Assembly (NCBI GenBank): GCA_028716665.1
Contig: JAQUPP010000002.1
Span: 139,717-203,716 of the forward strand
DNA from: Patescibacteria group bacterium
Lineage (GTDB): Bacteria > Patescibacteriota > Patescibacteriia > UBA2591 > JAQUPP01
Length of the DNA stretch: 64,000 bases
Direction of reading: 5' to 3'
A program made the translations under genes and the position numbers. Positions 6,753 to 64,000 of this stretch are shown piece by piece; positions within the stretch are counted from its first letter, which is position 1, and each line of letters opens with the position of its first letter. Below the pieces are notes generated by a model. The model saw only the letters and a list, made by a program, of their open reading frames with translations. It had not been told where the DNA came from and did no database searches.

Positions 6753-6758
6753 AAAGTC

Positions 6759-6933
6759 GCGAAATTCACCTTCACTCAACGCTCCAAATCCTTGAAAATT
6801 AAAGTCGTTTTGCTTAAAGAAAAATTCATAACTCCTCTCCCGACTATAGCGGGATCGTCAAACAGATGAATTTTTCTGCAAAACTCCTTAATTTTCTAAG
6901 GCTTTTCCGCGACATCGTTCAGGTGAATTTCGC
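6759..6933. repeat. Interspersed ~175-nt repeat, copy A, with 12-bp terminal inverted repeats (gcgaaattcacc...ggtgaatttcgc); MITE-like or structured ncRNA
   Basis: Near-identical core shared with 33917-34089; internal hairpin cccg-actatag-cggg. Confidence 0.6.
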
Positions 6934-7818: not shown

Positions 7819-8988
7819 ATGATTAAAAATAATTTTAAAACAATAGCCTTAACCGGCGGAGAAGCCGCAGCCGAAGCGATGAGACAAATTAATCCGGCTG
7901 TTTTTTCGGCTTATCCGATTACTCCACAAACTCCGATTATTGAAAAATTCGCGAAAATAGTTGAACAGGGATTGGTGGAGACGAAATTCATTTCCGTTGA
8001 ATCAGAACATTCGGCTATGAGTTTGGTGGTTGGCGCTACTGCCGCGGGCGGACGGGCGATGACGGCCACTTCCAGTCAAGGATTGGCTTTAATGATTGAA
8101 ATTTTGCCCATTGCCTCGGGTTTGCGTTTGCCGATTGTGATGAATTTGGCAATGAGAGCTTTATCCGCTCCTTTAAATATTCATAATGATCATCAAGATG
8201 CGATGCTGGCGCGCGATTTGGGTTGGATACAAATATTCTGTGAAAATAATCAGGAAGTTTATGAAAATAATTTTTTAGCCGTTCGTTTGGCCGAAAGTCA
8301 AAAAGTTAAATTGCCGGTTATGGTTTGCCAAGACGGTTTTATCGCTTCGCATAATTTGGAAGGCGTTAAAGTTTATGACGATAAAATAATCAAAAATTTC
8401 GTCGGCGATTATACTCCGGAAAATTATCTTTTAAATCTTAAAAAACCTTTAACCATCGGAGCGTTCGTGATGCCGGATTATTATTTTGAAATTAAAAAAC
8501 AAGTGGCGGACGCGATGAACGAGGCAAAAAAAGTTTATTTGAAAATAGGACAAGAGCTTAAAAAAATCACCGGCAATAATTACGGATATTTTGAAGAATA
8601 TTTTATGTCTGACGCGAAAGCGGTGATCGTGGCCATGGGTTCTGTCAGCGGCACAGCCAAAGCAGCAGTGGATAAATTGAGATCTCAGGGCAAGAAAGTC
8701 GGCTTGTTGAAAATTAATTTATACCGGCCATTTCCTTATAAAGAAGTGGAAAAAGTTTTAAATAAAATAAAATTTGTCGGCATTTTGGAAAGAGTGATGG
8801 GTTGCGGTTCAATAACGCCGTTGACCAGCGATATCAGCGAATGCTTGAATTCAAAAACCTCAAGACAAACTTATATTTTGGGATTGGGCGGAAGAGATGT
8901 TCAAATGGAAGAAATAGAAGGAATTTTCAATGATTTGCTTAAAGGAAAATTAAGTAAAGAACCGAAATATGTTGGACTGAAAAACTAG
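7819..8988 (+). CDS. porA: 2-oxoacid:ferredoxin oxidoreductase alpha subunit
   Basis: Length/architecture and operon context; SAYPITPQTPIIEKFA N-terminus typical of PorA. Confidence 0.75.
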   Translation: MIKNNFKTIALTGGEAAAEAMRQINPAVFSAYPITPQTPIIEKFAKIVEQGLVETKFISVESEHSAMSLVVGATAAGGRAMTATSSQGLALMIEILPIASGLRLPIVMNLAMRALSAPLNIHNDHQDAMLARDLGWIQIFCENNQEVYENNFLAVRLAESQKVKLPVMVCQDGFIASHNLEGVKVYDDKIIKNFVGDYTPENYLLNLKKPLTIGAFVMPDYYFEIKKQVADAMNEAKKVYLKIGQELKKITGNNYGYFEEYFMSDAKAVIVAMGSVSGTAKAAVDKLRSQGKKVGLLKINLYRPFPYKEVEKVLNKIKFVGILERVMGCGSITPLTSDISECLNSKTSRQTYILGLGGRDVQMEEIEGIFNDLLKGKLSKEPKYVGLKN

Positions 8989-11223: not shown

Positions 11224-12396
11224 ATGGCTCAATCCAAAAATCAGTCGTCAAAGTTGGCGGTAAAAATAAAAGTTATTGGCATCGGCGGGGCGGGTGGAGC
11301 GACTATCGGCAGGCTGATTAAAGCTAAAATAAACAATATTGAATACGTCGCCATCAATACTGATTTTAAATCTCTGGATTCAATCAAGGGAAAAGTTCAA
11401 AAAATAAAAATAGGAAAAAAAATCACCAAAGGATTGGGAACGGGAATGAATTTGGAACTGGGCAGAATGGCTATTGAAGAAAGCATCAATGACGTGAAAA
11501 AATCTTTAAACAACGCTGACTTGATTTTTATCGTTTCCGGATTGGGCGGGGGAACGGGCAGCGTGGTAACGCCCATTGTGGCGGAATTGGCGAAAAAAAA
11601 TGGAGCTCTTGTTATCGGCGTAATGACTACGCCTTTTATTTTTGAAGGAGCTCAACGCAAGCATATTGCCGATGAAGCTCTTAAAAAAATAATTCATCGA
11701 GTTGACGCGATGGTTACCATTCCGAACAGCCGGCTTTTGCAGACCATTGATAAATCAACTCCTTTATTGGAAGCGTTTAATATTTCCAGCGAAATTTTAA
11801 AACAGGCGATAGAAGGAATTTATAATATTCTTAATTTGCCCGGTTTGATTAACATAGATTTTGTTGAAGTCAAAACGGTTATTGAAAACGCCGGAGAAAC
11901 AATACTCGGCATGGGCACGGCCGAAGGAGAGGACAGAGCCAGGCAAGCCGCAAAATTGGCCTTGGAAAATCCTTTAATAGATATTTCCATCAAGGGAGCG
12001 AAAAAAGTTCTTTGCACCATCAGCGGCGGACCGGATTTAACCATGAATGAAGTTTATGAAATCACTCAAGAAATCACCAATCAAATCGGAAAAGAGGCGC
12101 AAATTATTTTCGGCGCCGTAACAGATGATAATTTAAAAAATAAAGTTAAGGTGACGATTGTCGCCACGGGTTTCAGCCAATTGCATTCTTATACGCCAAT
12201 TTTTGAGCCGTTCCACAAAAAAGAATTTACCGAAACTCCACTGCCTCAAAAATCTTCAATTAAAGAAGAAAAAAAAGAAATATTGAAAATAGAACCGATT
12301 TCAAAACAGGAATATAAATCAAAGTTTCAAAACAACAGCGAATTGTCGGAAGATGAATTGGAAATTCCCGCGTATTTGAGAAAGAAAAAGATGTAA
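11224..12396 (+). CDS. ftsZ: Cell division GTPase FtsZ
   Basis: Tubulin signature GGGTGSVVTPIVAELAKK; C-terminal conserved tail EIPAYLRKKKM. Confidence 0.95.
   Translation: MAQSKNQSSKLAVKIKVIGIGGAGGATIGRLIKAKINNIEYVAINTDFKSLDSIKGKVQKIKIGKKITKGLGTGMNLELGRMAIEESINDVKKSLNNADLIFIVSGLGGGTGSVVTPIVAELAKKNGALVIGVMTTPFIFEGAQRKHIADEALKKIIHRVDAMVTIPNSRLLQTIDKSTPLLEAFNISSEILKQAIEGIYNILNLPGLINIDFVEVKTVIENAGETILGMGTAEGEDRARQAAKLALENPLIDISIKGAKKVLCTISGGPDLTMNEVYEITQEITNQIGKEAQIIFGAVTDDNLKNKVKVTIVATGFSQLHSYTPIFEPFHKKEFTETPLPQKSSIKEEKKEILKIEPISKQEYKSKFQNNSELSEDELEIPAYLRKKKM
12331..12396 (+). repeat. Direct repeat copy 1 (authentic ftsZ 3' end, 66 nt)
   Basis: Sequence aacaacagcgaattgtcggaagatgaattggaaattcccgcgtatttgagaaagaaaaagatgtaa recurs at 13391, 14847, 16866. 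Confidence 0.9.
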
Positions 12397-13386: not shown

Positions 13387-13390
13387 TATA

Positions 13391-13456
13391 AACAACAGCG
13401 AATTGTCGGAAGATGAATTGGAAATTCCCGCGTATTTGAGAAAGAGAAAGATGTAA
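13391..13456 (+). repeat. Direct repeat copy 2 of ftsZ 3' end (66 nt, 1 mismatch)
   Basis: Sequence identity to 12331-12396. Confidence 0.9.
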
Positions 13457-13667
13457 AATGAAAAAGCCCCCGATAGAGACGGAACTCTATAAGGGTCTTC
13501 TTCGTGGTGATATAATCATCTTATCAAATATAAAATTTTTGTCAAAACATTTATTGTGAATAAATTTCAAAATTTTTAGAAATAGTGAGTAGTATGTTGG
13601 AGTAAAATTTGATATAATTAAAAATTAACAGTTAATACTTGAACAGTAATAACTAACCAAAAAAATA

Positions 13668-13925
13668 ATGTACTCAATTATAGAAACAATCAAACAGGCT
13701 GCCAGTAAAAGAAAGATTTTAAAGATTATTTATCGTGAGAAAGATGGTACAAGCGAGGGGTGGCGATATATAGAACCCTATAGTTTCAGTCATGATGATG
13801 GCGAAGACGGTCTTTTTGCTTGGGATATTAGTAAAGGTGGCATCAGGAGATTTTCATTTGATAGAATTAATGATATTCAACTCACTGATGAAACATATAA
13901 TCCGCGTTATGGGATAGAAATTTAA
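13668..13925 (+). CDS. Stand-alone WYL-domain-like small protein
   Basis: KILKIIYREKDG..RYIEPYSF...GLFAWD...GIRRFSFDRI matches WYL domain consensus (iiY..g..R.veP..l.....wyL.aw....g.R.FrldRI). Confidence 0.55.
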   Translation: MYSIIETIKQAASKRKILKIIYREKDGTSEGWRYIEPYSFSHDDGEDGLFAWDISKGGIRRFSFDRINDIQLTDETYNPRYGIEI

Positions 13926-13926
13926 T

Positions 13927-14727
13927 ATGGAAAATAAAAAATTTAAATTAAAAATAAAAAAAAGAACTTTACTTATTATTGATTGGGCAAACGTTTGGGG
14001 TTGGTCAAAAACTTTAAAATGGGAAGTATGCCCTCAAAAATTATTTAAATTTTTTGATAGACCAAAAATTATTGATAAAAGATTTTATTATGGAGTAGAA
14101 AAGGGTCAGCCAAAATCAGAAAATTTTGAATTAGAAATTAAAAACATCGGATTTACTCCTATTTTTAAAGAAGTTAAATGGATACCAGTTTTGCTGGAAG
14201 AACAGTCTCATTTTAAGAAAATTGTTAAAGATTTATTTAATGTATTAGATAATGTGAAAAATACAAATTCTAATATTTCAAATAAACTTTATGAGTTGAT
14301 TAAAAAAATCAATGATTTGTCTGAAACAAGCGTTGGTAACAACAAGGAATCTTTTAACTTGTCTAGTGAGAAAAGTTTAAAGGAAATATTTGACTTAATT
14401 GAAGAATTGGATATTGATTTGAAAAATTTGAATATTGAAATAGGCGGGCTTCAAGAAAATTTAAAATTGCCGGTTCGAAGGCGGAAATGTGATTTTGATG
14501 TAGAAATAACTAGAGATGCTTTGAATGCTCAAGATAATTATGATACATTATTGTTATTTAGTGGGGATGGTGATTATTCTGCCTTAACAGCGGATTTAAT
14601 TGCAAAAGGTAAAAAGGTAATTTTAGTTTTTGCTTCTGATCATTTAGGGAAGGAATATCGAGAGATAAAGAGTAATCTTTTTTATGCTTGTTTAATTGAT
14701 AATTTAAGAGATATTTTACAAAAATAA
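13927..14727 (+). CDS. NYN/LabA-like (PIN-fold) predicted ribonuclease with central coiled-coil insert
   Basis: N-terminal LLIIDWANV and C-terminal LLLFSGDGDYSALTADLIAKGKKVILVFA match NYN/LabA core. Confidence 0.55.
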   Translation: MENKKFKLKIKKRTLLIIDWANVWGWSKTLKWEVCPQKLFKFFDRPKIIDKRFYYGVEKGQPKSENFELEIKNIGFTPIFKEVKWIPVLLEEQSHFKKIVKDLFNVLDNVKNTNSNISNKLYELIKKINDLSETSVGNNKESFNLSSEKSLKEIFDLIEELDIDLKNLNIEIGGLQENLKLPVRRRKCDFDVEITRDALNAQDNYDTLLLFSGDGDYSALTADLIAKGKKVILVFASDHLGKEYREIKSNLFYACLIDNLRDILQK

Positions 14728-14728
14728 A

Positions 14729-14757
14729 TCCGAGGAAGTAATTCCTCGGATTTATGT
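14729..14757 (+). terminator. Hairpin terminator after NYN gene (ccgagga-agtaatt-cctcgg + T)
   Basis: Inverted repeat read directly. Confidence 0.5.
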
Positions 14758-14846
14758 GTATCTCAATGAATAAATTCATTGAGCGCGATTAATTAAAATA
14801 TAGCATATAATGTTAAAATTACAATAGGCCATTGTGGATAACCTCA

Positions 14847-14910
14847 AACAGCGAATTGTCGGAAGATGAATTGGAAATTCCCGCGTATTTGAGAAAGAAA
14901 AAGGGGTAAT
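14847..14910 (+). repeat. Direct repeat copy 3 of ftsZ 3' end (~64 nt; gatg->gggg change)
   Basis: Sequence identity to 12333-12396. Confidence 0.85.
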
Positions 14911-14983
14911 TTATCTTGCACTATTCCTTAAATAAACCGCGATAGAACAATAGAAGGGGAATAAATTAATTATAATATAAAAT

Positions 14984-15241
14984 ATGAGCCTAACAAATAG
15001 AATAAGTGATGGGTGGCTTCGCTTATTAATAACAATTTGCTATACAATTATTTCTTTATTTTTTCTATATAAAGGAGTTGATTTAATAAAAATAGGAGCA
15101 AGAGGAGAATGGAGGGTTGTTGCTGATTTTAAAGATATACCACTTTATATAACAAGTATTTCCCCTGGTGTATTAGTAATTTTAGCTGGCATGCTGATAA
15201 TGTGTTGGGGCCTGCCAACAACTATAAAGAATTTAAAATAA
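14984..15241 (+). CDS. Small two-TM membrane protein, unknown function
   Basis: Two hydrophobic helices; no recognisable motif. Confidence 0.4.
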   Translation: MSLTNRISDGWLRLLITICYTIISLFFLYKGVDLIKIGARGEWRVVADFKDIPLYITSISPGVLVILAGMLIMCWGLPTTIKNLK

Positions 15242-15394
15242 ATATGGCCCGAATAAGATACAAAAATCCAATTGAATATAAAGGGTTATAGGCGGGGAAA
15301 ATTTTATGACAAGAAGATACCTATTAATGAGTCCACGAAGAGAAATTTTAATATATGATGAAAAAAATTAAAAACTAATTTAATCGTCAGTCAT

Positions 15395-15883
15395 ATGCAT
15401 GCAAAAATTTTAAATCAAGATGCCGATACTTATTACAATGAAGGAATAGGCTTAGAAAAATTGGGACACTACGAAGAAGCAATAGAAATGTATGACCAAG
15501 CAATTAAAATTAATCCTCGATTTGACGCCGCCTATTACAGTAAAGGAAGGACCTTAAATGAATTAGGGAATTACAGAGAAGCGATAAAAATGTTTGATCA
15601 GGCAATTAAAATTGCCCCTCAATTTGCCTGGATTTATAATAAAGGATATCAAGAAGTGATAGAAAGATCCTGTCAGGCAATCAAATTTAGAGGAAGTGAC
15701 TTAAATGAATTAGGGAATTACAGAGAAGCGATAAAAATGTTTGATCAGGCAATTAAAATTGATCCTCAGAATGCCGATGTTTATATTAGAAAAGGATATG
15801 CCTTAGATAAATTAGGTAATCATAGAGAAGCGATAAAAATGTATAAAAAGGCACTTAAAATTGATCCTCATTTTGGAGAATAA
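15395..15883 (+). CDS. TPR-repeat protein (contains two nucleotide-identical internal repeats)
   Basis: Repeated YxEAIKMxDQAIKIxP TPR-like units; DLNELGNYREAIKMFDQAIKI duplicated. Confidence 0.65.
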   Translation: MHAKILNQDADTYYNEGIGLEKLGHYEEAIEMYDQAIKINPRFDAAYYSKGRTLNELGNYREAIKMFDQAIKIAPQFAWIYNKGYQEVIERSCQAIKFRGSDLNELGNYREAIKMFDQAIKIDPQNADVYIRKGYALDKLGNHREAIKMYKKALKIDPHFGE

Positions 15884-15947
15884 ATAATTGAATAAAAATA
15901 ATGAATAGTGACTACGATGATTTAATTAAATTAAAGTAAATGAATCT

Positions 15948-16844
15948 ATGGAAGAAAAATTAAAAAAACGATTTACTTTTAAACTTTGGAGTCGCGAAAG
16001 AGATTTAAAAACTTTAAAATATATTGCTATATTTATAGTTGTTTTCGCTTCAATCATAATAATCTTGGATGCGATTGACTATCAGTTTGGCTCCAATGAA
16101 GATAACTCAGCTAATGAACCTACTGAGCAAAAAGTGGAAGAAAATAATTGCAATGTGTCGGGCATTCAATTGCATGGGGAATTTGTGACTTATATTCCAT
16201 CAAATAATTTTGATAAAGACGGAAATGTTTTGGAAGATCAAACCTCTTCTGACAATATTGTTTATTACATCAATGAAGCAGAAAAAAATGAAAGTATTAA
16301 AGCTATCATTTTAGAAATTGATTCTTACGGCGGTTCAGGAGTAGCCGCGGAAGAAATCAGTAATGCTTTAAAAAATGCTAAAAAGCCAACAGTTGCTTTA
16401 ATTAGAGATATTGGAGCCTCGGCTGCTTATTTTGCGGCAACCGGTACAGACAGAATTTTTGCTTCTAAAAATTCTAACGTTGGCAGCATAGGAGTTACCA
16501 TGTCTTATCTAGACTATACTCAACAAAATCAAAAAGAGGGAGTGACTTATATTCCGCTTAGTTCAGGAAAATTCAAAGATACCGGCGACCCGGATAGGGC
16601 ACTCTCACAAGAAGAAAAAGACCTTTTAATGCGTGACGTCAATATCCAATATCAAAATTTCATAAAATCAGTAGCGGAAAATAGAAATTTAGATATTAAA
16701 AAAGTGGCAGAATTAGCTGATGGTTCAACTATGCTTGGAGAAATGGCACTTCAAAACGGATTAATTGATCAAATCGGCGGGATAGAGGAGGTTAAAGAAT
16801 ATCTAAAAGAAAAAATCGGAGAAGACGTGGATATTTGTTGGTAA
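15948..16844 (+). CDS. SppA-like signal peptide peptidase (S49 family), N-terminal TM anchor
   Basis: IDSYGGSGVAAEEI, GASAAYFAA (Ser nucleophile context), SIGV motifs of S49/ClpP-fold peptidases. Confidence 0.7.
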   Translation: MEEKLKKRFTFKLWSRERDLKTLKYIAIFIVVFASIIIILDAIDYQFGSNEDNSANEPTEQKVEENNCNVSGIQLHGEFVTYIPSNNFDKDGNVLEDQTSSDNIVYYINEAEKNESIKAIILEIDSYGGSGVAAEEISNALKNAKKPTVALIRDIGASAAYFAATGTDRIFASKNSNVGSIGVTMSYLDYTQQNQKEGVTYIPLSSGKFKDTGDPDRALSQEEKDLLMRDVNIQYQNFIKSVAENRNLDIKKVAELADGSTMLGEMALQNGLIDQIGGIEEVKEYLKEKIGEDVDICW

Positions 16845-16865: not shown

Positions 16866-16899
16866 TAATTCCCGCGTATTTGAGAAAGAAAAAGATGTA
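16866..16899 (+). repeat. Direct repeat copy 4 (partial, 34 nt) of ftsZ 3' end
   Basis: aattcccgcgtatttgagaaagaaaaagatgtag. Confidence 0.8.
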
Positions 16900-17070
16900 G
16901 TTTATTCCCTACCGGATTGACAATTTTTTATCGCTCAAATTCTAGCAGTTTGAATTAAAATTTTGCATAAGTTTTCAAAATATATTATTTTTTAAATGAT
17001 GATGAATATAAATGGATTATTGCACAATTTAATGAATAAGTGAGTTAAGAAATATAAGGTTCAAAATAGT

Positions 17071-18688: not shown

Positions 18689-20590
18689 ATGAAAAAACAA
18701 TTCTCATTTTTTAAAATTACAATAATCATTTTAATATTTGGTGTTTTTGCATTTGTCAATCAAGTTTGTGCAGAAATAAATGATTATCAACTAAATAAAA
18801 ATGATGTTCAATATGCGATAACACCATTAATATTTAACGAAGGGGATAGAGAGCCAATTGAATTAAAGTTTAAAATATTATCATCAAATTTTGATTATAC
18901 TGAAATTAAGTCTATTTATTTTAAGTTTTATAATTATTCTGATGATTTATACTTTTCTTTTTCTAAAGGAATCTTTGAAAATGATTGGAACACAAATAAC
19001 AAAGAATTCACATTCAGTATGACAAATGATTGGTCTACAAGATATAATGCCAAGTTAATTTCAATTGATTATCAGGTTAAATATCAAAATATTTTGTATT
19101 CTATTCCAATTGATGATGAAACCAAAATAATAGTTATACCGACGGTGCCGATTACTTGTAATTCTTTTATTTATTCTAATTGGTCTTCTTGCTCTGAGGG
19201 CGGTTCACAGACAAGGTCTATAATTTCTTCTTCTCCAAGTGGATGTTCCGGGGGCAACCCTATTTTAACTCAAACTTGTACTTATGTTCTACCAGTTTGC
19301 ACTTCATGGGTATATTCCGATTGGAATATTTGTCAATCTAATGGGACACAAAATAGAACTGTAACTTCATTTTCACCAAACGGTTGCACGGGTGGCAACC
19401 CTATTTTAACTCAATCCTGTGCTTATGTTGCACCAACCTGCACTTCATGGACTTATTCTAATTGGTCTTCGTGTTTAGACAACAGTCAGCAAACAAGGTC
19501 TATAATTTCTTCTTCTCCAAATGGTTGTTCTAATGGAAATCCAATATTGACTCAATCTTGCACATATATTTACACTCCACCAACCTGCACTTCATGGACT
19601 TATTCTGATTGGGGCGCGTGTGTTAATAATCAACAAAGCAGAACAATAATATCGTCACAGCCTGCAAGCTGTATTGGCGGTAATCCTATATTAATACAAA
19701 CTTGTAATCTTACACCAGCCTGTTCAGAAAACGATTGGACGTCTCTTTTAACTCCAACGGCTTGTCCAAATAACGGTCAGCAAACAAAAACATGGTATAA
19801 AATAGGGCAATGCCAAGAGGGAGTTACTCATCCATCTACAGAAACAATCAGCTGTAATTATCAAGCACTTACTTGTACTGATTTCACATACAATAATTGG
19901 GGTGAGTGCGGTTTAAGCGGTGTGCAATCAAGGACGGTATTTTCTTCTTCTCCAAGTGGATGTTCCGGGGGCAACCCTATTTTAACTCAAACTTGTACTT
20001 ATATTCCTACCTGCATAGTAAATAATTGGTCTTGTGGTAATTGGTCTAGTTGTTCTTCAAATGGTGCTCAAACTAGAATATGTAATAAAATTTTAAATTG
20101 CGATGGGGGCGTATTGTCGCCTGCAACTACACAATCATGTATTTATACATCGCCAGAAAAACAAGAAAATATCGGTTCACTTTCGGACGGAACCTTGGTC
20201 AGAATAAAAGGTACTGCCGGTGTTTATTTAATTTATAACAATCAAAAACGTCCCATTAAGAGTGCTGCGGTATTTTTAGGCAGAGGATATAAATGGAAAA
20301 ATATAATTGATGTTGATGCGAATATATTAAATGTTTATCCTACGGGCTCAGAATTAACAATTTCAGAAGTAATAAATATAGTGCCAAAAAATCAGGGTAT
20401 CAAGATAAAGATTAATGTCCCGAGTTTGCGAGTTAGAAGTTTACCCAATGCGAACGGAAAAATTATTATTTCAGTCTTGAACGGGAAAGAATATCAAGTG
20501 ATCGAAAAACAAACCGGTTGGTATAAAATAAATTATACTGCTAATAAAACAGGCTGGATAATGAGCCAATATACAAAAATAATTAAATAA
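18689..20590 (+). CDS. Secreted protein with ~7 thrombospondin-type-1-like Cys-rich repeats and C-terminal SH3b-like domain
   Basis: Signal peptide; repeats CTSW.YS.WS.C..NG.QTR...SSSP.GC.GGNPILTQ.C.Y (W-S-x-W-S-x-C...QTR) with near-identical DNA copies; C-term GWYKINYTANKTGWIMSQYTKI. Confidence 0.55.
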   Translation: MKKQFSFFKITIIILIFGVFAFVNQVCAEINDYQLNKNDVQYAITPLIFNEGDREPIELKFKILSSNFDYTEIKSIYFKFYNYSDDLYFSFSKGIFENDWNTNNKEFTFSMTNDWSTRYNAKLISIDYQVKYQNILYSIPIDDETKIIVIPTVPITCNSFIYSNWSSCSEGGSQTRSIISSSPSGCSGGNPILTQTCTYVLPVCTSWVYSDWNICQSNGTQNRTVTSFSPNGCTGGNPILTQSCAYVAPTCTSWTYSNWSSCLDNSQQTRSIISSSPNGCSNGNPILTQSCTYIYTPPTCTSWTYSDWGACVNNQQSRTIISSQPASCIGGNPILIQTCNLTPACSENDWTSLLTPTACPNNGQQTKTWYKIGQCQEGVTHPSTETISCNYQALTCTDFTYNNWGECGLSGVQSRTVFSSSPSGCSGGNPILTQTCTYIPTCIVNNWSCGNWSSCSSNGAQTRICNKILNCDGGVLSPATTQSCIYTSPEKQENIGSLSDGTLVRIKGTAGVYLIYNNQKRPIKSAAVFLGRGYKWKNIIDVDANILNVYPTGSELTISEVINIVPKNQGIKIKINVPSLRVRSLPNANGKIIISVLNGKEYQVIEKQTGWYKINYTANKTGWIMSQYTKIIK

Positions 20591-25672: not shown

Positions 25673-27058
25673 TTTCTTGATAATTGATCCTTGCTCAGCA
25701 TCTTCCACCGTAAATCCTAAATCTTCAATTTTTTTGCGAACTTGGTCGGCTTCCGACCATTTTTTTTGTTTTCTTAATTCTTCCCGTTCTTTGGCCAAGG
25801 CAGATATTTCTTCCGGAATTTCTATCGGTTTTACTTTATCCAAATTTAATCCCAAAACTTGGTCAAACTTCAATAAAGTGGCCATTTTTTGTTCATCAGG
25901 ATATTTTTCTTTTAATAAATCCCAAACAACCGCCAAAGCTTTTGGCGTGTTTAAGTCATCGTTAATGGCTTGGTCAAATTTTTCTTCAACTTCTTTAATT
26001 ATGGTAGTTGGTTTAGGAAAATTTCCCACGATTTGATAAAGATTATTCAAAGCATTCTGAGCCGCAGTTAAACTTTCCAAATCAAAGGATAGGGGAGAAC
26101 GGTAATGAGTGTTTAAACATAAATAACGGAAAGCCAAAGATTGAAAATTTAAATTTTTTAATTCTGAAAGGGTATAAATTTCACCTTTACTTTTTGACAT
26201 TTTTCCGCCTTTAAACAAGAGCCATCTTATATGCAGCCAATAATTGACGAATTTTTTACCCGTGGCCGCTTCGCTTTGGGCGATTTCATTAGTATGATGA
26301 ATGGCAATATGTTCTTCACCGCCGGTATGAATGTCGAAATGTTCTCCCAGATATTTCATACTCATAGCCGAGCATTCAATATGCCAGCCCGGAAAACCAA
26401 TTCCCCAAGGGCTTTCCCATTCTTGCTGCCTTTTCGCTTGTCCTGAGCCATGAGCTTGTCGAATGGTCGAAGGGGAGAATTTCCAAAGAGCAAAATCAGT
26501 AATGTTCTTTTTTTCTTTCATCTCAATTCTCGCACCTGCCTCAAGCCCTTCTATTTTGAGTCCGGCCAATTTGCCATAATCTTTTAATTTGGAAGTGTCA
26601 AAATAAATTCCGTCAGAAGTTTTGTAAGTATATCCTTTTTCTTCCAATTTTTTTATCAATTCAATTTGTTCTTTAATATGTTCGGTTGCCTTGCACCAAA
26701 TATCGGGTTCGGAGATATTTAATTTTTTAAAATCATCTTTAAGAATTTGCCAATAATAATTGGCGATATCTTCCGCTTTTTTCCCTTCTTTGGCAGCCGC
26801 TTTTTCCATTTTATCTTCGCCTGTGTCCGCATCAGAAGTTAAATGTCCAACATCAGTTACATTGATAACATGCTTGATTTGATAATTATTGTAAATTAAG
26901 GTTTTTTTGAGAACATCGGCAAAAATATAAGCTCTTAAACAGCCGATGTGCTGATACCAATAAACCGTTGGGCCGCAAGAATAAATGCCGGCAAAACCGG
27001 GTTTAATCGGTTTAAATTCTTCTTTCTGGCGAGTGAGAGTGTTATAAAGTTTTAACAT
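25664..27058 (-). CDS. cysS: Cysteinyl-tRNA synthetase (with 12-16 aa insertion [13 protein letters not shown] before the GWHIECS zinc motif)
   Basis: Class I HIGH-like region ([17 protein letters not shown]), [14 protein letters not shown]. Confidence 0.92.
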
Positions 27059-28166: not shown

Positions 28167-29099
28167 ATGATTCAGGTTAAGAAAAATGTTTGTTTGGCGC
28201 CTTTGACCAGTTTTAAAATTGGCGGACCGGCCAAATATTTTTTGGAAGCCAAAAATGTTGATGAAGTTGCAGGGGGTTTGAAATGGGCCAAGAAAAATAA
28301 AATTAAATATTTTGTTTTGGGCGGCGGGAGCAATATATTGATATCGGATAGGGGATTTAACGGATTGGTGATAAAATTACTAATTACTAATTACAAATTA
28401 CTAAATAATAAATTAGTTGTCGGAGTTGGAACATCACTGGCCAAATTAGTCAGTACTTCAATTAAGGCCGGTTTAACTGGACTAGAATGGGCGGCAGGCA
28501 TTCCGGGCACTCTTGGGGGCGCAATATACGGCAATACGGGAGCCATGGGTCATTCTATTTCACAATCAGTGGAAAAGATAAAAGTTTTGAGAAACGGCAA
28601 GATAAAAAATTTAAAAAACAAAGACGCAAAATTCGCTTATCGGAAAAGTATTTTTCAAAAAAATAAAGATATTATTTTAGAGATTGAATTAAAATTGCAG
28701 AAAGGGGACAAGGAGGAAATTAAAAAATTGATAAAAGAAAATTTATTAAAAAGATCTCCAAATCAACCCCGTTATCCAAGCGCCGGATGCGTATTTAAAA
28801 ATTTCAGCTTAAGGCTGACCAGCCTCGGGCTGGCGAAATTATCAGAAAAGTACCCCGAGCTAGAAAATTTCAAGAAATCAGGCACGGTTTCAGCCGGCTG
28901 GTTGATTGAGAAATGCGGTTTAAAAGGCAAGCAAATCGGCCAAGCGCAAATCAGTGAGAAACATGCTAATTTCATAGTTAATCTGTGCAATGCCAGGGCC
29001 AAAGATGTTATTGCTTTAATCAATTTAGTCAAGAAAACAGTTAAAAATAAATTTAATTTTGATTTGAAAGAAGAAATACAATATGTCGATTTTAAATAG
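28167..29099 (+). CDS. murB: UDP-N-acetylenolpyruvoylglucosamine reductase
   Basis: FAD-binding N-term (LTSFKIGGPAKYF), GGSNIL, C-terminal MurB domain. Confidence 0.85.
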   Translation: MIQVKKNVCLAPLTSFKIGGPAKYFLEAKNVDEVAGGLKWAKKNKIKYFVLGGGSNILISDRGFNGLVIKLLITNYKLLNNKLVVGVGTSLAKLVSTSIKAGLTGLEWAAGIPGTLGGAIYGNTGAMGHSISQSVEKIKVLRNGKIKNLKNKDAKFAYRKSIFQKNKDIILEIELKLQKGDKEEIKKLIKENLLKRSPNQPRYPSAGCVFKNFSLRLTSLGLAKLSEKYPELENFKKSGTVSAGWLIEKCGLKGKQIGQAQISEKHANFIVNLCNARAKDVIALINLVKKTVKNKFNFDLKEEIQYVDFK

Positions 29100-33899: not shown

Positions 33900-33916
33900 A
33901 TTGATAACGAATGGTG

Positions 33917-34089
33917 GCGAAACCCGCCTTCACTCAGCGCTCCAAATCCTTGAAAATTATACTCGTTTTATTTTTAAAAATTCATAACTCCTCTCCCGAC
34001 TATAGCGGGATCGTCAAACAGATGAATTTTTCAATAAAACTCCTTAATTTTCTAAGGCTTTTCCGCGATTTCGTTCAGGCGAATTTCGC
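33917..34089. repeat. Interspersed ~175-nt repeat, copy B, with terminal inverted repeats (gcgaaacccgcc...ggcgaatttcgc)
   Basis: Core near-identical to 6759-6933; ORF 33911..34126 in track is considered spurious. Confidence 0.6.
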
Positions 34090-37145: not shown

Positions 37146-38120
37146 ATGACTCAAAAAGAAATTTACAATTTAGCCATTAAAATGGGCATTGAAGCGGATT
37201 TGCGAGGCAAAAAAATGGTTGAAAAAATAATGAAAAGAATCAATCAAAAATACGAGGCAATGTCTAAGGATCAAAAAGAAGAATTTGATGAAGAAAGATT
37301 GACTAATCCGTATTCCGATTCGCGTATTTTATTTGACCCTTCGACCATTCGACAAGCTCATGGCTCAGGGCAGGCAAAAAAGCAAATTAAAAGAATTTTA
37401 GTCGGCGTTGATATGGAAATAGGCGAACTTTTACTAGCCGACAAATTGGGTAATATTGATTTGGTTTTAGCGCATCATCCGGATGGTTGCGCTTTGGCCG
37501 GGCTGGACGATGTGATGAAACTTCAGGCAGACGTTTTAAATCTTTACGGCGTGCCGATTAATATTGCCGAGAATTTAATTCATATTCGCATGGAAGAGGT
37601 GAGTAGAGGGGTTTCTTCAGCTAATCACAATGAAGCCGTGGATGCGGCAAAATTATTAAATATGGGTTTTATGTGTGTTCATACTCCGTGCGATAATTTA
37701 GTGGCTGATTTTCTCAAGAAAAAAATAGAAAAAGAAAAACCGGAATTTGTTGAAGATTTATTGAAATTATTAAAAAGCATTCCTGAATATAAAGAGGCGA
37801 TTAAAATCGGAGTCGGGCCGAGGCTTTTTACCGGCAAATCGGAAAATCATTGCGGAAAAATTGCCTTAACCGAACTTACCGGCGGTACCGAAGGCTCGCC
37901 CGAAATTTACGAAAAATTATCTCAGGCCGGAGTTGGTACGGTGGTGGCCATGCATCTCAGCGAAAAACATGTTAAAGAAGCTATTAAAGCACACATTAAC
38001 GTAGTCGTGGCCGGGCATATTTCATCAGATTCGCTGGGCTTGAATTTATTTTTAGATAAACTTGCCAAACAAAAAATTGAAATCATTCCTTGTTCCGGAC
38101 TAATCAGAATAAAAAGATAA
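37146..38120 (+). CDS. NIF3/YbgI-family dinuclear-metal protein with N-terminal extension carrying [13 protein letters not shown] segment
   Basis: RILVGVD...DLVLAHHP...VVAGHISSDSLG motifs of NIF3 family. Confidence 0.7.
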   Translation: MTQKEIYNLAIKMGIEADLRGKKMVEKIMKRINQKYEAMSKDQKEEFDEERLTNPYSDSRILFDPSTIRQAHGSGQAKKQIKRILVGVDMEIGELLLADKLGNIDLVLAHHPDGCALAGLDDVMKLQADVLNLYGVPINIAENLIHIRMEEVSRGVSSANHNEAVDAAKLLNMGFMCVHTPCDNLVADFLKKKIEKEKPEFVEDLLKLLKSIPEYKEAIKIGVGPRLFTGKSENHCGKIALTELTGGTEGSPEIYEKLSQAGVGTVVAMHLSEKHVKEAIKAHINVVVAGHISSDSLGLNLFLDKLAKQKIEIIPCSGLIRIKR

Positions 38121-40110: not shown

Positions 40111-40262
40111 TCCTTGGACAGGCCACAAAAAAAGACACTGTCGATTTCCCCAGCGGGAAAATCGCAGCTCGTTCTCGGTCTCGCTCCTCCGACATTCGTC
40201 GGAGACCGTGCCCGCTCGACCTGCGAAACGCTTTTTTTGCGGCACAATCCTCGGACTATTAG
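40111..40262 (+). other. GC-rich structured segment in groEL 3' region (candidate ncRNA / structured 3' UTR)
   Basis: ~150 nt of ~60% GC with hairpins (tccgac-attc-gtcgga; outer tagtcc...ggacta) between groEL stop and terminator; ORFs 40044/40067 in track are arginine-rich GC artefacts. Confidence 0.3.
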
Positions 40263-40836: not shown

Positions 40837-43335
40837 ATGACCAAAAAATTAGTTATACCTTTTAAAGATTTAACCATTAAAGACGTTCCCAGAGTTGGCG
40901 GTAAAAATGCTTCCTTAGGAGAAATGTATCAGAAATTAACGAAAAAAGGGATTAGAATACCAAATGGTTTTGCCACCACATCTGATGCTTATTGGTATTT
41001 TTTGGATGAATCAGGTCTCAAAAAAGGAATCAAAGAAATTTTAAAGGGCCTTGATGTAAAGGACATGAAAAATTTAATGACTCGCGGTAAAAAGATTCGA
41101 GAGTTAATTTTAAAATCAGAATTGTCTCAAGATTTAAAATCGGAGATTGTTAAATTTTATAAAAATCTCTCCAAAGAATACGGCGTGGAAAATGTGGATG
41201 TGGCGGTAAGAAGTTCTGCCACCGCTGAAGATTTGCCCGGTGCTTCTTTTGCCGGCCAGCAAGAAACTTTTTTAAATATTCATGGCGAAAAAGAACTTTT
41301 AATAGCAGTACTTAAATGTATTGCTTCTCTTTTTACTGACAGAGCTATTGTTTATCGAACAGAACAGGGATTTGATCATCTTAATGTGGCTCTCTCAGTC
41401 GGAGTGCAAAAAATGATTCGTAGTGATTTGTCTTGTTCCGGAGTAATGTTTTCTTGCGATACGGAATCCGGTTTTGCAGACGTGACGGTTATAAATTCAT
41501 CATGGGGATTGGGTGAAAATGTCGTGCAAGGAAAAGTCAGCCCAGACGAATTTATAGTTTATGAACCGTTGAATAAAGGCCAATTTAAGCCAATTGTCAG
41601 CAAGAAATTAGGTTTGAAAGAATGGACAATGACTTATGACAATAAAGGAAATAAATCGACAAAAAATTTGCGCACTGCTTTTGAAAAACAAAATAAATTT
41701 ACTTTAACTGATGAAGAAGTTTTGGAATTGGCGCGTTACTCGGTTATTATTGAAGAACATTATAAGCGGCCAATGGATATGGAATGGGCGAAAGACGGTC
41801 ACGATAAAAAATTATATGTTTTACAGGCAAGACCGGAAACAATCCAATCCAAAAGATCTCTTGATGTTTTGGAAGAATATGTTTTATCGGGAAAGGAAAT
41901 AAATTCACGAACTTTAGCGAGAGGTAAAAAGTTCTCGGCCCAAGGCCGATCCGCCTCGGGCGGAAGTGTTTTAACAACCGGCGTGGCAATTGGCAGTAAA
42001 ATCGGCACAGGTGAAGTTAATATTATTAAAACCGCAAAAGATATCAGTAAATTTAAACCCGGACAAATTTTAGTTACTGAAATGACTGATCCTGATTGGG
42101 TACCGATTATGAAAATCGCCAAAGCCATTGTTACTGATGCCGGCGGCAGAGTTTGCCATGCGGCGATTGTCTCTCGCGAATTGGGAATTCCTTGCGTAGT
42201 GGGTACGGGGAATGCCACTCAAAAAATTCATCAAGGACAAAAAATAACCGTTTCTTGTTCCGAAGGGGAACAGGGCTTTGTTTATAACGGTTTGCTGCCT
42301 TTTAAAATTAAAAAAACCGTGATTAAGGGTTTGAAAAGACCGAAGACAAAAATTATGATGAATGTCGGCGATCCGGAGCAGGCTTTTGCTTTTGGCTTGA
42401 TTCCAAATGACGGCGTTGGCTTGGCGCGAGAAGAATTCATTATTAATGATTATATTAAAATTCATCCTTTGGCGCTTATTCATTATTCGAAAATTAAAGA
42501 TAAAAAAATAAAAGAACAAATTAATAAAATTACCATTGGTTATTCTGATAAAGTTAAATTTTACGTTGATAAATTGGCCGAAGGCATTGCTCATATCGGC
42601 GCCGCGTTTTATCCAAAAGACGTAATTGTCAGATTTTCTGATTTCAAAACCAATGAATACGCGAATTTAGTCGGCGGTTCTTTGTTTGAACCGACGGAAG
42701 CAAATCCGATGATCGGCTGGCGCGGGGCTTCCCGTTATTACGGAGAAAAATTTAAACCGGCTTTTGAATTGGAATGCCAAGCGATTAAAAAAGTTCGCGA
42801 AGTGATGGGATTGGACAATGTGATTGTAATGGTGCCGTTTTGCCGAACCGTTAAAGAAGGGGAGGATGTGCTGAAAATTATTGACCAATACGGTTTGCGT
42901 AAAAATAAAAAAGGCATTAAACCTTTGAAGGTTTATGTGATGTGCGAAATTCCTTCCAATGTTATTTTGGGCGAGGAATTTGCCAAGATTTTTGACGGTT
43001 TTTCAATCGGCTCAAATGATTTGACTCAATTGACTTTGGGACTTGATAGAGATTCGGCTTTGGTGGCGCATTTATTTGACGAAAGAAATGAAGCGGTAAA
43101 AAGATTAGTTAAAAAAATTATTGAAATTGCTCATCAGTATAAACGAAAAGTTGGAATTTGCGGCCAAGCGCCAAGCGATTTTCCTGATTTTGCCGAATTC
43201 TTGGTTAAAGAAGGAATTGATTCCATTTCTCTTAATCCTGATACGGTGGTTAAGACTACGATGGATATTTTAAAGACCGAGAAAAATATTCGGCCCAAGG
43301 CCGATCCGCCTCGGGCGGAAAAGAAAAATAAATAA
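40837..43335 (+). CDS. ppsA: Phosphoenolpyruvate synthase / pyruvate,water dikinase
   Basis: PEP-utilising enzyme domains; GGRVCHAAIVSRELGIPCVVG phosphohistidine region; C-terminal TIM barrel. Confidence 0.88.
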   Translation: MTKKLVIPFKDLTIKDVPRVGGKNASLGEMYQKLTKKGIRIPNGFATTSDAYWYFLDESGLKKGIKEILKGLDVKDMKNLMTRGKKIRELILKSELSQDLKSEIVKFYKNLSKEYGVENVDVAVRSSATAEDLPGASFAGQQETFLNIHGEKELLIAVLKCIASLFTDRAIVYRTEQGFDHLNVALSVGVQKMIRSDLSCSGVMFSCDTESGFADVTVINSSWGLGENVVQGKVSPDEFIVYEPLNKGQFKPIVSKKLGLKEWTMTYDNKGNKSTKNLRTAFEKQNKFTLTDEEVLELARYSVIIEEHYKRPMDMEWAKDGHDKKLYVLQARPETIQSKRSLDVLEEYVLSGKEINSRTLARGKKFSAQGRSASGGSVLTTGVAIGSKIGTGEVNIIKTAKDISKFKPGQILVTEMTDPDWVPIMKIAKAIVTDAGGRVCHAAIVSRELGIPCVVGTGNATQKIHQGQKITVSCSEGEQGFVYNGLLPFKIKKTVIKGLKRPKTKIMMNVGDPEQAFAFGLIPNDGVGLAREEFIINDYIKIHPLALIHYSKIKDKKIKEQINKITIGYSDKVKFYVDKLAEGIAHIGAAFYPKDVIVRFSDFKTNEYANLVGGSLFEPTEANPMIGWRGASRYYGEKFKPAFELECQAIKKVREVMGLDNVIVMVPFCRTVKEGEDVLKIIDQYGLRKNKKGIKPLKVYVMCEIPSNVILGEEFAKIFDGFSIGSNDLTQLTLGLDRDSALVAHLFDERNEAVKRLVKKIIEIAHQYKRKVGICGQAPSDFPDFAEFLVKEGIDSISLNPDTVVKTTMDILKTEKNIRPKADPPRAEKKNK

Positions 43336-44899: not shown

Positions 44900-44984
44900 G
44901 GAGAGGTCGCATAGTGGTCGAGTGCGCTTGCTTGGAAAGCAAGTATACCGCAAGGTATCGGGGGTTCGAATCCCCCCCTCTCCG
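44900..44984 (+). tRNA. tRNA-Ser (anticodon GGA), type II with long variable arm
   Basis: Manual fold: acceptor ggagagg/cctctcc, anticodon stem cttgc/gcaag loop ttGGAaa, variable arm tataccgcaaggtatc, T-arm ggggg-ttcgaat-ccccc. Confidence 0.8.
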
Positions 44985-45039: not shown

Positions 45040-45130
45040 AAATATGATTCGAACCGCGGGCCGCAGTCCCCGAAGAGGGGACGAAGGTTTCGAGCCGCAG
45101 CAGCGGCGAGAAGCGAATCTCCCCCCGTTT
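45040..45130 (+). other. GC-rich tRNA-3'-end-like remnant / small structured element downstream of tRNA-Ser
   Basis: Hairpins gtcccc-gaag-ggggac and gccgc-agca-gcggc; 3' end cgaatctccccccgttttta resembles tRNA-Ser 3' end cgaatccccccctctccgttttta. Confidence 0.3.
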
Positions 45131-63613: not shown

Positions 63614-63939
63614 TCCGGCGTAGCTCAATGGTAGAGCAGCTGGCTGTCAAAAAAAGGCAGCCCTCCGAAGTAATTCGGGGTAGAAAAATAGGGTGAAATC
63701 GGGGAAACCCCACTGGGGCAATCCCGAGCCAAGCCTTAACCTATAAAGTTAAGGAAGGTGTAGAGACTATCCATTTATGGAGTAGCCGATCAACTTGTTG
63801 ATGTAGGCGAAGCGCCCTATCCCGCACAGAATTTAATATTTTATTAAATTCTACGGGAATGATATAGTCCACGCTTAGAAGCAATTCTAGGATAAGTGTA
63901 ACCAGCTTGTTGTGGGTTCGATTCCCTCCGCCGGAGCCA
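63614..63939 (+). tRNA. tRNA-Asn (anticodon GUU) interrupted by group I intron; exon1 63614-63647, exon2 63899-63936 (+CCA to 63939)
   Basis: Exons fold as tRNA with U1-A72, G73, D-stem gctc/gagc, anticodon stem gctgg/ccagc, loop cuGU|Uaa, T-arm gtggg-ttcgatt-ccctc. Confidence 0.7.
63648..63898 (+). ncRNA. Group I self-splicing intron (IC3-like, tRNA-intron family), 251 nt
   Basis: Hallmark P3/P7 sequences GGCAATCCCGAGCCAAGCC and AAGGTGTAGAGACTATCCATTTATGG (cf. trnL intron GCAAUCCUGAGCCAA / AGGUGCAGAGACUCAAUGG); P1 exon ggcugU pairs with intron gcagcc (U.G at splice site); intron ends with G. Confidence 0.75.
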
Positions 63940-64000
63940 AATATTCTTGTGAAAGCGACCCGTCCCCGTCAGGGAATTGGTCAATAAAAATAAGGGTTTT

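Follow-up and report, generated by a model that had tools for sequence, protein, structure and literature searches.

A short GC-rich interspersed repeat lying in frame in cysS and a NIF3-family gene of a Patescibacteria genome

The stretch of DNA considered here ("the window": 64 kb, about 35% GC, taken from a contig of at least 334 kb) belongs to a Patescibacteria group bacterium and carries the same GC-rich segment twice, in frame, in two unrelated genes: cysS, which encodes cysteine--tRNA ligase (CysRS), and a gene of the NIF3 family. We consider it probable that both segments are copies from a single subfamily of an interspersed DNA repeat, short and GC-rich ("family 1"), that has been written into coding DNA; the mechanism by which the copies were written there is the less certain part of this account. 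Coordinates are collected in Table 1 (last section).

The two copies and their host genes

The 32-mer CCTTCGACCATTCGACAAGCTCATGGCTCAGG is found exactly at 26442-26473 (minus strand) and at 37338-37369 (plus strand), which makes 33 of 33 nucleotides if the preceding C is counted. The window contains no third match at up to 3 mismatches, and 100 shuffles produced none. The preliminary description of this DNA reported the identical 32-mer in both genes and argued that a GC-rich match of this kind in an AT-rich genome is very unlikely by chance; both statements are correct. The 48-nt arms 26427-26474 and 37337-37384 are 92% complementary and constitute the longest inverted repeat of the window. 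The copies lie 10.9 kb apart, both are sense and in the same frame, and their five mismatches are all A/G transitions, occurring in both directions; the first two fall on positions that are variable (R) family-wide.

The segment was initially described as 48 nt encoding 16 amino acids (aa). The 48 nt do correspond at 92%; however, the last 8 or so (AAAARGCA, K-K/R-Q) are target sequence, because element-free orthologues have the K-K/R-Q codons too. The element itself measures 39 nt, or 13 residues, in both genes. Neither window copy shows a significant RNA fold on either strand (z from +0.76 to -0.12). Rfam recognises only tRNAs and a group I intron in the window, none of them at the element, and at 18 + 4 related loci it returned, permissive E-values included, only chance hairpin matches to miRNA models.

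We aligned 119 CysRS and 120 NIF3 homologues, the comparison that the preliminary description had proposed, and the closest orthologues lack the element in both cases. In CysRS the loop between WKFS and RQQEW usually has 5 residues (EKPGL, ETPGK, PLGEK) and in the window it has 14. The protein of L003 (87% identical) has the loop EKPGL, with the DNA GAG AAA CCG GGT TTG; this is the ancestral loop. The protein of L001 (86% identical) has PSASSGQAK, encoded by the short-form DNA CCTTCGGCAAGCTCAGGGCAAGCG, and the window cysS has the same sequence with two extra modules. The cysS event exchanged 15 nt for 42 nt. An in-frame insertion at a variable CysRS loop had been suggested; the extra loop material is real, but it came as a patch replacement and not as a pure insertion. 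The four closest NIF3 orthologues (86-90% identical) read RILVE-TKK-QIK without an insert. Compared with the syntenic gene of L156 (90% nucleotide identity), the NIF3-family gene shows one clean 36-nt gap, and locally 9 nt (GTGGAGACA) were exchanged for 45 nt. These alignments show that the NIF3 insertion is recent.

Both inserts lie in loops. The HMMER alignment to the solved CysRS structure 3sp1 leaves an 8-residue gap at the motif. In the AlphaFold model of CysRS (mean predicted local distance difference test score, pLDDT, 81.3), residues 198-208 score below 50 and form a coil between two strands; in the model of NIF3 (mean pLDDT 89.6), residues 71-76 score below 50 and form a coil between strands 59-63 and 83-90. 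The structural data support the view that both inserts are tolerated loop material.

A recognisable version of the element is present at the identical junction and in the identical frame in 15 of the 119 CysRS and in about 8 of the 120 NIF3 homologues, and decayed loop versions are found in others (PSTNSEEQ, PSANSEMR, SSTGLKQNKK, PYMNLTQTKK). Carriers with 63-74% protein identity and genes of 33-44% GC have near-canonical element nucleotides at the same loops (see the carrier orthologues in Table 1). According to the preliminary description, a relative with the same peptide and divergent nucleotides would speak for an ancient segment and not for a recent shared insertion. A related peptide is indeed present at the same positions, but its nucleotides are canonical, so that this objection does not refute a DNA-level element. 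On a crude tree (unweighted pair-group clustering, UPGMA, with the loop masked), 11 state changes are needed to place the 15 CysRS carriers, where shuffling gives a mean of 14.4. This scatter would fit recurrent gain and loss, allelic exchange or refreshed old insertions alike.

The long variant carried by the window copies has doubled CCTTCGAC and GCTCA modules and occurs in no other NIF3 or CysRS among the 240 homologues retrieved. We rejected a lineage-private internal duplication as its origin; the same variant is exact in 31 unrelated metagenome contigs. We likewise rejected the idea that the cysS copy had been the donor for the NIF3 one, because TTTGAC (5') and GGGCAGGCA (3') of the NIF3 patch are absent from the cysS copy. 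At the cysS site a long-subfamily copy appears to have overwritten a short form, because the nearest carrier (L001) holds the short form and the long variant is not lineage-private.

Family 1 across bacteria

As a working definition, family 1 comprises the modules CCTTCGRC, ARGCTCAGG and RCARGC or RCGAACGG in fixed order, with sharp bounds and unrelated flanks; the unit is modular in this sense. Both window copies agree with this definition, and their doubled-module build is that of L009, L056, L101 and the 31 long-subfamily contigs. The back-translation of PSTSSGQA is CCTTCGACAAGCTCAGGACAAGCG.

The pattern CCTTCGN{0,8}RCAAGCTCAN{0,7}GGRCARGC was scanned against 185,579 species-representative genomes. 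At least 120 genome stretches matched, almost all as an ungapped 23-mer (for which about 0.1 chance matches are expected); the unit C-CCTTCGRCARGCTCAGGRCARGC-T, 24-25 nt, is exact in them and spans more than 15 phyla. The matches listed include Acidobacteriota, Chloroflexota, Planctomycetota, Alpha-, Beta- and Gammaproteobacteria, Bacteroidota, Cyanobacteriota, Nitrospirota, Verrucomicrobiota, Chlamydiota, Saccharibacteria, Kaiserbacteria, Peribacteria and others; among them the GC content of the family-1 locus ranges from 0.35 to 0.73, and the flanks are unrelated. Related inserts also turn up in closed long-read chromosomes and in independent assemblies from JGI, ENA, Logan and NCBI. No entry of Rfam, Pfam or NCBIfam and no paper of the literature searched names the unit or describes its occurrence in Patescibacteria, and Pfam and NCBIfam assign no family to translations of the tandem units in five frames.

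The bounds of the unit were determined from 150 unique solitary copies. The information content is at background beyond C (position -1, 85%) and T (position +1, 57%). No target-site duplication (TSD) is evident: identical flanks number 15, 1, 1 and 0 for k = 2-5 against the expected 9.4, 2.3, 0.6 and 0.15. A flanking stem is present in only 20% of these copies, and the unit has no terminal inverted repeats (TIRs). Solitary units are the commonest form in the sample (139 of 171 copies have no complementary module within 90 nt). Other forms are as follows. An intergenic segment of a closed Dehalococcoidia chromosome (L122, 2399-2790) consists of about 17 perfect head-to-tail 23-nt units CCTTCGGCAGGCTCAGGACAGGC; 24-nt tandem arrays occur in L106, L074 and L054, those of L074 at the contig end; the module duplication CCTTCGAC-CCTTCGAC is found in L009, L056 and L101. 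Cultured Comamonadaceae have REP-like inverted pairs, e.g., between etfB and etfA in Comamonas endophytica (z = -7.4), and the copies of Comamonas and Xenophilus are strong hairpins (z = -7.4 and -3.9, respectively).

The 25-mer that spans both extra modules of the long subfamily was matched exactly by 31 JGI metagenome contigs with a GC content of 0.36-0.69, and the consensus reads ccgttyaCCCTTCGACCATTCGACAAGCTCATGGCTCAGGrCGAACGGtg. These copies lie mostly outside long open reading frames (ORFs); those inside occupy every frame on both strands. The core GCTCAGGACGAACG(G) (26435-26452 in the window) equals the extreme 5' end of bacterial 16S rRNA, i.e., the 27F primer region and the next bases, and in full-length long-subfamily copies (L132, L135, L145, L153 and others) the sequence TCATGGCTCAGGACGAACGG equals the 16S rRNA 5' end. 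The match was verified against E. coli rrs (...TTTGATCATGGCTCAGATTGAACGCTGG) and the Gram-positive-type CTGGCTCAGGACGAACGCTGG as printed in the literature. The window copies are without the CGAACGG module and have only 14 nt in common with 16S. The likeness may be origin, mimicry or coincidence.

Outside the Candidate Phyla Radiation (CPR, or Patescibacteria) the unit is mostly intergenic; its hosts among coding genes, with their readings, are given in Table 1. Three sense and two antisense frames of the unit are without a stop. At the low-GC loci, 9 coding copies are sense and 4 antisense, near the 3:2 ratio of open frames, and the intergenic copies have no preferred orientation relative to the neighbouring genes (7 to 6). 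These orientations fit a DNA element filtered by translational tolerance. Family 1 is not a peptide module, because its nucleotides are kept at 63-74% protein identity and the unit is read in other frames elsewhere. Of the four proposals in the preliminary description, the evidence favours the first, an "in-frame mini-insertion element". Another proposal, "gene conversion of a shared loop module", is borne out only in part: a patch was replaced and the cysS copy appears overwritten, but there is no protein-level module, considering the other frames elsewhere and the mostly intergenic copies outside CPR.

Mobile DNA was searched as well. The degenerate 23-mer is present in 74 viral contigs of IMG/VR; scans of the viral data with two single-variant patterns gave 0 matches, so that only the degenerate 23-mer finds these copies. 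In the phage contigs L171, L192, L210 and L214 the unit occupies an orthologous site with an identical upstream flank and differs in A/G at four R positions, and other related phage contigs have it at different sites. The only match to annotated phage, in the tail-fibre genes of Pseudomonas phage (20 nt, E = 0.6), was judged to be chance. The plasmid collection contains a few unannotated intergenic copies from Sphingomonadaceae and Comamonadaceae.

Known systems and competing explanations

Repeats inserted in frame are known, namely Rickettsia palindromic elements (RPEs), some MITEs (miniature inverted-repeat transposable elements) and GTAG/CGTC repetitive extragenic palindromes (REPs) (PMC2229807, PMC3733652). 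Family 1 resembles these repeats, yet it departs from them in size, palindromy, tags, TSD and host range.

The closest analogue is the RPE (Ogata et al. 2000, as summarised in PMC2229807 and PMC3733652). RPEs measure 105-146 bp, have TIRs of about 12 bp and long stem-loops and occur in Rickettsia only, and the product of an RPE-containing gmk is translated and active. The likeness consists in a non-coding repeat that is both intergenic and in frame in unrelated housekeeping genes of a reduced-genome bacterium and absent from orthologues; the positions are permissive, the copies are polymorphic between relatives, and the peptide is a by-product. The differences are that the present unit is 24-45 nt (the element, 39 nt) with no hairpin, TIR or TSD in the window copies, and that the host belongs to Patescibacteria, while phage contigs and more than 15 phyla have the unit as well.

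REPs are imperfect palindromes of 20-40 nt, mostly arranged as inverted pairs, with a GTAG (or CGTC) tag and the REP-associated tyrosine transposase RAYT, a Y1 HUH transposase (PMC3733652, PMC3116915). Family 1 is likewise short, GC-rich and interspersed, as are REP, BIME and REPIN sequences, and its proteobacterial members are hairpins with 25-40-nt arms in operon spacers; a mosaic modular build is shared with BIMEs, and REPs occasionally occur in coding regions. However, the 150-copy consensus of family 1 has neither a GTAG nor a CGTC tag, its copies are mostly single non-palindromic half-units or head-to-tail arrays, no RAYT is linked to it within about 8 kb (225 loci), and REP families are species- or genus-specific, whereas the 23-mer does not change from phylum to phylum. 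MITEs (Correia/NEMIS, ERIC, RUP, YPAL) are about 100-200 bp long and have TIRs, usually a TA TSD, and stable stem-loop transcripts (PMC2229807, PMC10969869). The window copies differ in size and have no TIRs, TSD or stem-loop.

The uptake signal sequences of Haemophilus and the DNA uptake sequences of Neisseria have 9-12-nt cores at a density of about one copy per kb, are lineage-specific and lie in tolerant frames and poorly conserved segments. Family 1 is similar to them as a motif of DNA on either strand that is translated in whatever frame tolerates it, and differs from them in its unit of 23-24 nt, in having two copies in 64 kb and in its distribution across phyla. In Acinetobacter baylyi, Harms et al. 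in 2016 reportedly found short-patch double illegitimate recombination (SPDIR), a rare process with arbitrary donors. The likeness here is that a patch is swapped for ectopic sequence, with microhomology at the junction and no TSD, as at cysS, NIF3 and site 1 of the PEP-utilising enzyme (next section). By itself, however, SPDIR leaves one recurrent 23-mer donor in many phyla unaccounted for.

We presume that copies of family 1 are installed by a patch-type process of template copying, similar to gene conversion, and not by classical transposition; candidate routes would be template switching with microhomology during replication or repair, or short-patch recombination. We infer this from the lack of a hairpin, TIR, TSD or linked gene, taken together with the patch replacements. 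Three of the four window-specific events replaced a patch and were not clean insertions, and neither a gene family nor a transposase is linked to the element in the gene-neighbour test (225 loci, about 8 kb around the element; the largest cluster covers 15 of them). Resident copies may be overwritten by other family members, e.g., the short form in cysS by the long form. In gene-dense CPR genomes the copies would persist only where they are harmless, i.e., where the length is a multiple of three, the frame has no stop and the site is a disordered loop, linker or protein end. The extra peptide loop would then be a by-product of the repeat DNA and not a functional module.

A number of observations weigh against this account. 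Within the 64 kb covered, out of a contig at least 334 kb long, neither a donor copy nor a candidate enzyme was found, and family 1 is sparse there, with only two copies. Patch replacement is derived from only four events, in comparison with relatives about 10% diverged, and the "scattered" pattern of carriers comes from the crude UPGMA tree. Exactly the same codon junction and frame recur in CysRS and NIF3 of many CPR lineages whose close relatives have no element; to explain this, one has to assume a hot spot, exchange of alleles, or old insertions kept "fresh". Finally, a near-perfect cross-phylum 23-mer is hard to square with purely neutral junk and hints at a constraint or a regenerating template. 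It is tempting to propose that the 23-24-nt unit is an undescribed pan-bacterial "nano-element" without hairpin, TIR, TSD or linked gene. Its near-identity across phyla and phages would then come from continual re-copying of, or constraint by, some universal template or machine, its core being equal to the 16S rRNA 5' end; patches would be overwritten repeatedly in the same essential-gene loops, and this process, alongside two or more further small repeat families, would be the main source of protein-length change in CPR. We regard this extension as speculative and unlikely.

Non-autonomous transposition, i.e., a REP/REPIN- or MITE-type unit moved in trans by a RAYT/IS200-like or another transposase, is the first rival to consider, and we are doubtful of it. 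The Comamonadaceae members are textbook REP-like hairpins in operon spacers, the full-length long-subfamily copies have an outer CCGTT/AACGG stem, and REPs and MITEs are known to land in genes (PMC3733652, PMC2229807). On the other hand, neither the window copies nor most of those sampled are palindromic, being single units; among 150 copies there is no TSD, TIR, GTAG or CGTC tag, and among 225 loci no co-occurring gene family; three of the four recent events swap a patch; and REPIN-RAYT systems are lineage-specific, whereas the unit is identical across phyla.

Allelic exchange would mean that old loop alleles spread among related CPR by homologous recombination of cysS and NIF3 segments, the window copies being inherited or imported. 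We give this rather little credence, even though the carriers within each protein family all share one junction and frame, the CysRS carriers are scattered (11 changes for 15 carriers) and the flanking codons are highly conserved. Among the 240 homologues there is no known allelic donor of the long variant; unrelated proteins, intergenic DNA and other phyla contain the unit as well; and homologous recombination is unlikely at 63-65% protein identity. Moreover, allelic exchange accounts for the spread and not for the origin.

A function at the RNA level, whether as a transcript site bound by a small RNA (sRNA) or RNA-binding protein or through mimicry of the 16S 5' end, seems improbable to us. 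It agrees with the strong conservation of the 23-mer across phyla, with the match of the core GCTCAGGACGAACG and of the long-subfamily TCATGGCTCAGGACGAACGG to the 16S 5' end, and with the sense orientation of all confirmed CPR coding copies. It is at odds with the lack of a significant fold or an Rfam family, with the 14 nt to which the common part of the window copies and 16S is limited, and with the 17-unit tandem arrays, which are unlike regulatory sites. That sense copies predominate within coding DNA agrees with how many frames are open, and the nearly equal orientation of intergenic copies (7 to 6) argues against a transcript-level function. The suggestion of the preliminary description that both mRNAs carry an sRNA or protein target is therefore not upheld.

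We see very little chance that the loop PSTxSGQA was selected in both enzymes as a flexible protein module, e.g., a modification or interaction site. Both window proteins, and orthologues of each, do have the same peptide in the same frame; nevertheless, the closest orthologues do without the loop, the peptide decays freely (to PSTNSEEQ, PSANSEMR, SSTGLKQNKK or PYMNLTQTKK), other proteins read this DNA as LRQAQGK or FDKLMAQ, it is the nucleotides and not the amino acids that are conserved, and the inserted residues are low-pLDDT coil.

An artefact of assembly or binning, or a CRISPR protospacer-like sequence, has next to no probability: although the genome is a metagenome-assembled genome (MAG) and short repeats can mislead assemblers (as the L074 arrays at a contig end illustrate), both copies lie inside intact full-length ORFs with conserved flanks, the CysRS and NIF3 proteins are each 100% identical to a "Patescibacteria group bacterium" MAG protein and recorded from several contigs, related inserts are present in independent assemblies and closed chromosomes, the window repeats include no CRISPR array, and a protospacer would not account for the unit in more than 15 phyla. 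The preliminary description had named an assembly artefact as grounds for dismissal; the several contigs and the motif-bearing orthologues in many independent metagenomes contradict it.

Further candidates were tried and rejected. A template/variable repeat pair of a diversity-generating retroelement does not agree with a repeat of 39-48 nt instead of about 100, with mismatches that are not adenine-specific, with the lack of a reverse transcriptase and with two housekeeping genes as targets. The likeness to a tRNA T-loop or D-loop or to a Tn3 inverted repeat is too weak. A response-regulator or iteron-type site (GRCARGC direct repeat, 11-nt spacing) misfits the 17-unit arrays and the coding copies.

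In-frame selfish DNA in essential genes has been a Rickettsia curiosity since 2000; family 1 now brings it to CPR/Patescibacteria, the largest uncultured bacterial radiation. The CPR inserts come from much smaller, non-palindromic units and, in the region compared, account for almost every difference in protein length between close relatives. For annotation and phylogenomics of CPR, this means that loops such as PSTSSGQA, LRQAQGK, SASGG and ADPPRAE are repeat DNA and not a homology signal; structure prediction is affected too, the repeat-derived inserts being disordered. The observation bears on the tolerance of tiny gene-dense genomes to repeat invasion, and an explanation of how the 23-mer is copied or constrained could expose an unrecognised route of DNA copying or repair.

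The second repeat family and other features of the window

A second GC-rich repeat, CGGCCCAAGGCCGATCCGCCTCGGGCGGAA, which consists of two mini-hairpins (5-6 bp), is present twice in the gene of a PEP-utilising enzyme (832 aa), and both copies are absent from the 92%-identical orthologue of L156. At copy 1, L156 has a 30-nt patch where the window has a 39-nt patch. At copy 2, the window has about 37 nt extra, which provide a new tail and stop: the L156 protein ends with NIKKKK* and the window protein with NIRPKADPPRAEKKNK*. The diverged copy in murB is common to the window and L156, with the L003 protein 6 aa shorter, and is older. The second family is also found as GGSASGGK in the Saccharibacteria FolD that carries family 1 (L124, 483-499).

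The window was compared with its two close relatives L156 and L003 over 7,260 aligned residues, which contain six real indels of at least 3 aa. Five of the six involve repeats that were identified or a TIR hairpin element: cysS and NIF3 have family 1, the PEP-utilising enzyme and murB have family 2, and cysS of L003 has a 117-nt element. The sixth is an unclassified 36-nt GC-rich in-frame insert private to L156 (CCGCGTCAGTCTGTGTCCGGTCAGCGTAAGTCAGTG, PRQSVSGQRKSV) in its PEP-utilising enzyme gene (within 13624-16119). The element of L003 (about 8098-8214; also in L004) adds 39 aa in frame to cysS and is absent from the window. Its TIRs are 15 bp long (CACCCCGTTAGAAGTT...AACTTCTAACGGGGTA), it folds as DNA into a strong hairpin (z = -6.0), and it is truly RPE/MITE-like.

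Table 1. Repeat copies and host genes in the window, carrier orthologues, and other coding hosts of family 1
Feature	Position or locus	Strand	Sequence, reading or remark
Family-1 long-subfamily copy in cysS	26435..26474	-	C + CCTTCGAC-CATTCGAC-AAGCTCA-TGGCTCA-GGACAAGCG; 39 nt; encodes P196-A208
cysS, cysteine--tRNA ligase, 464 aa	25664..27058	-	Pfam tRNA-synt_1e
Family-1 long-subfamily patch in NIF3-family gene, 45 nt	37332..37376	+	TTTGAC + CCTTCGAC-CATTCGAC-AAGCTCA-TGGCTCA-GGGCAGGCA
NIF3 element proper	37338-37376	+	encodes P65-A77
NIF3-family (DUF34) protein, 324 aa	37146..38120	+	four closest orthologues, 312 aa
Second repeat, copy 1, mid-protein	41936..41965	+	CGGCCCAAGGCCGATCCGCCTCGGGCGGAA, read as FSAQGRSASGGS; PEP-utilising enzyme ORF 40837-43335
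Second repeat, copy 2, C-terminus	43291..43320	+	other frame, IRPKADPPRAEK; PEP-utilising enzyme ORF 40837-43335
Diverged second-family copy (67%) in murB	28796..28839	+	FSLRLTSLGLA, in frame
Carrier orthologue DNA	L157		CCTTCAACAAGCTCAGGGCAAGCG
Carrier orthologue DNA	L158		CCTTCGGCAGGCTCAGGACAAGCA
Carrier orthologue DNA	L159		CCTTCGGCGAACTCAGGACAAGCA
Carrier orthologue DNA	L160		CCTTCGACGGGTTCAGGACGGGCC
PolX, thumb-PHP linker	L032, Saccharibacteria		LRQAQGKP (host by Pfam)
DsbA-like thioredoxin, after transmembrane helix	L069, Kaiserbacteria		PSASSGQA (host by Pfam)
FolD, loop	L124, Saccharibacteria		PSTSSGQA (host by Pfam)
DJ-1/PfpI	L007, Peribacteria		PSASSGQA (host by Pfam)
UvrC	L102, Pseudomonadota MAG		LRQAQDRL (host by Pfam)
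Haemagglutinin-repeat protein, two copies	L141, unassigned metagenome contig		two frames (host by Pfam)

A scan of the window for GC-rich islands was not diagnostic and returned mostly ordinary Gly/Ala-rich protein motifs. The window contains other repeats. Three to four neighbouring genes have near-identical 3' ends of 38-67 nt (91-99%; 12330-12396, 13390-13456, 14843-14909 and 16867-16904), which end in ...ELEIPAYLRKKKM*; the shared tail resembles the C-terminal tail of FtsZ, and the first copy is in an FtsZ-like ORF. A repeat of about 180 nt (82-95% identical) is found at 6756-6933 and 33914-34089, 27 kb apart, the second copy directly upstream of two tRNA genes (34164 and 34303). Diverged tandem repeats at 19152-20006 and 15442-15875 (four of 141 nt, 64-78%; a pair of 185 nt, 74%) are probably repeated protein domains.

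The group I intron (Rfam RF00028, 75.5 bits; 63638-63891, plus strand) is followed by the tRNA T-arm-like sequence GGGTTCGATTCCC at 63911-63940, where ARAGORN calls no tRNA; the segment 63638-63940 may be an intron-interrupted tRNA gene at the window edge. GC-rich (65%) intergenic blocks lie just after groEL (40163-40233) and just after the tRNA at 44900-44984 (45044-45129), and may be small RNAs or further repeat elements.

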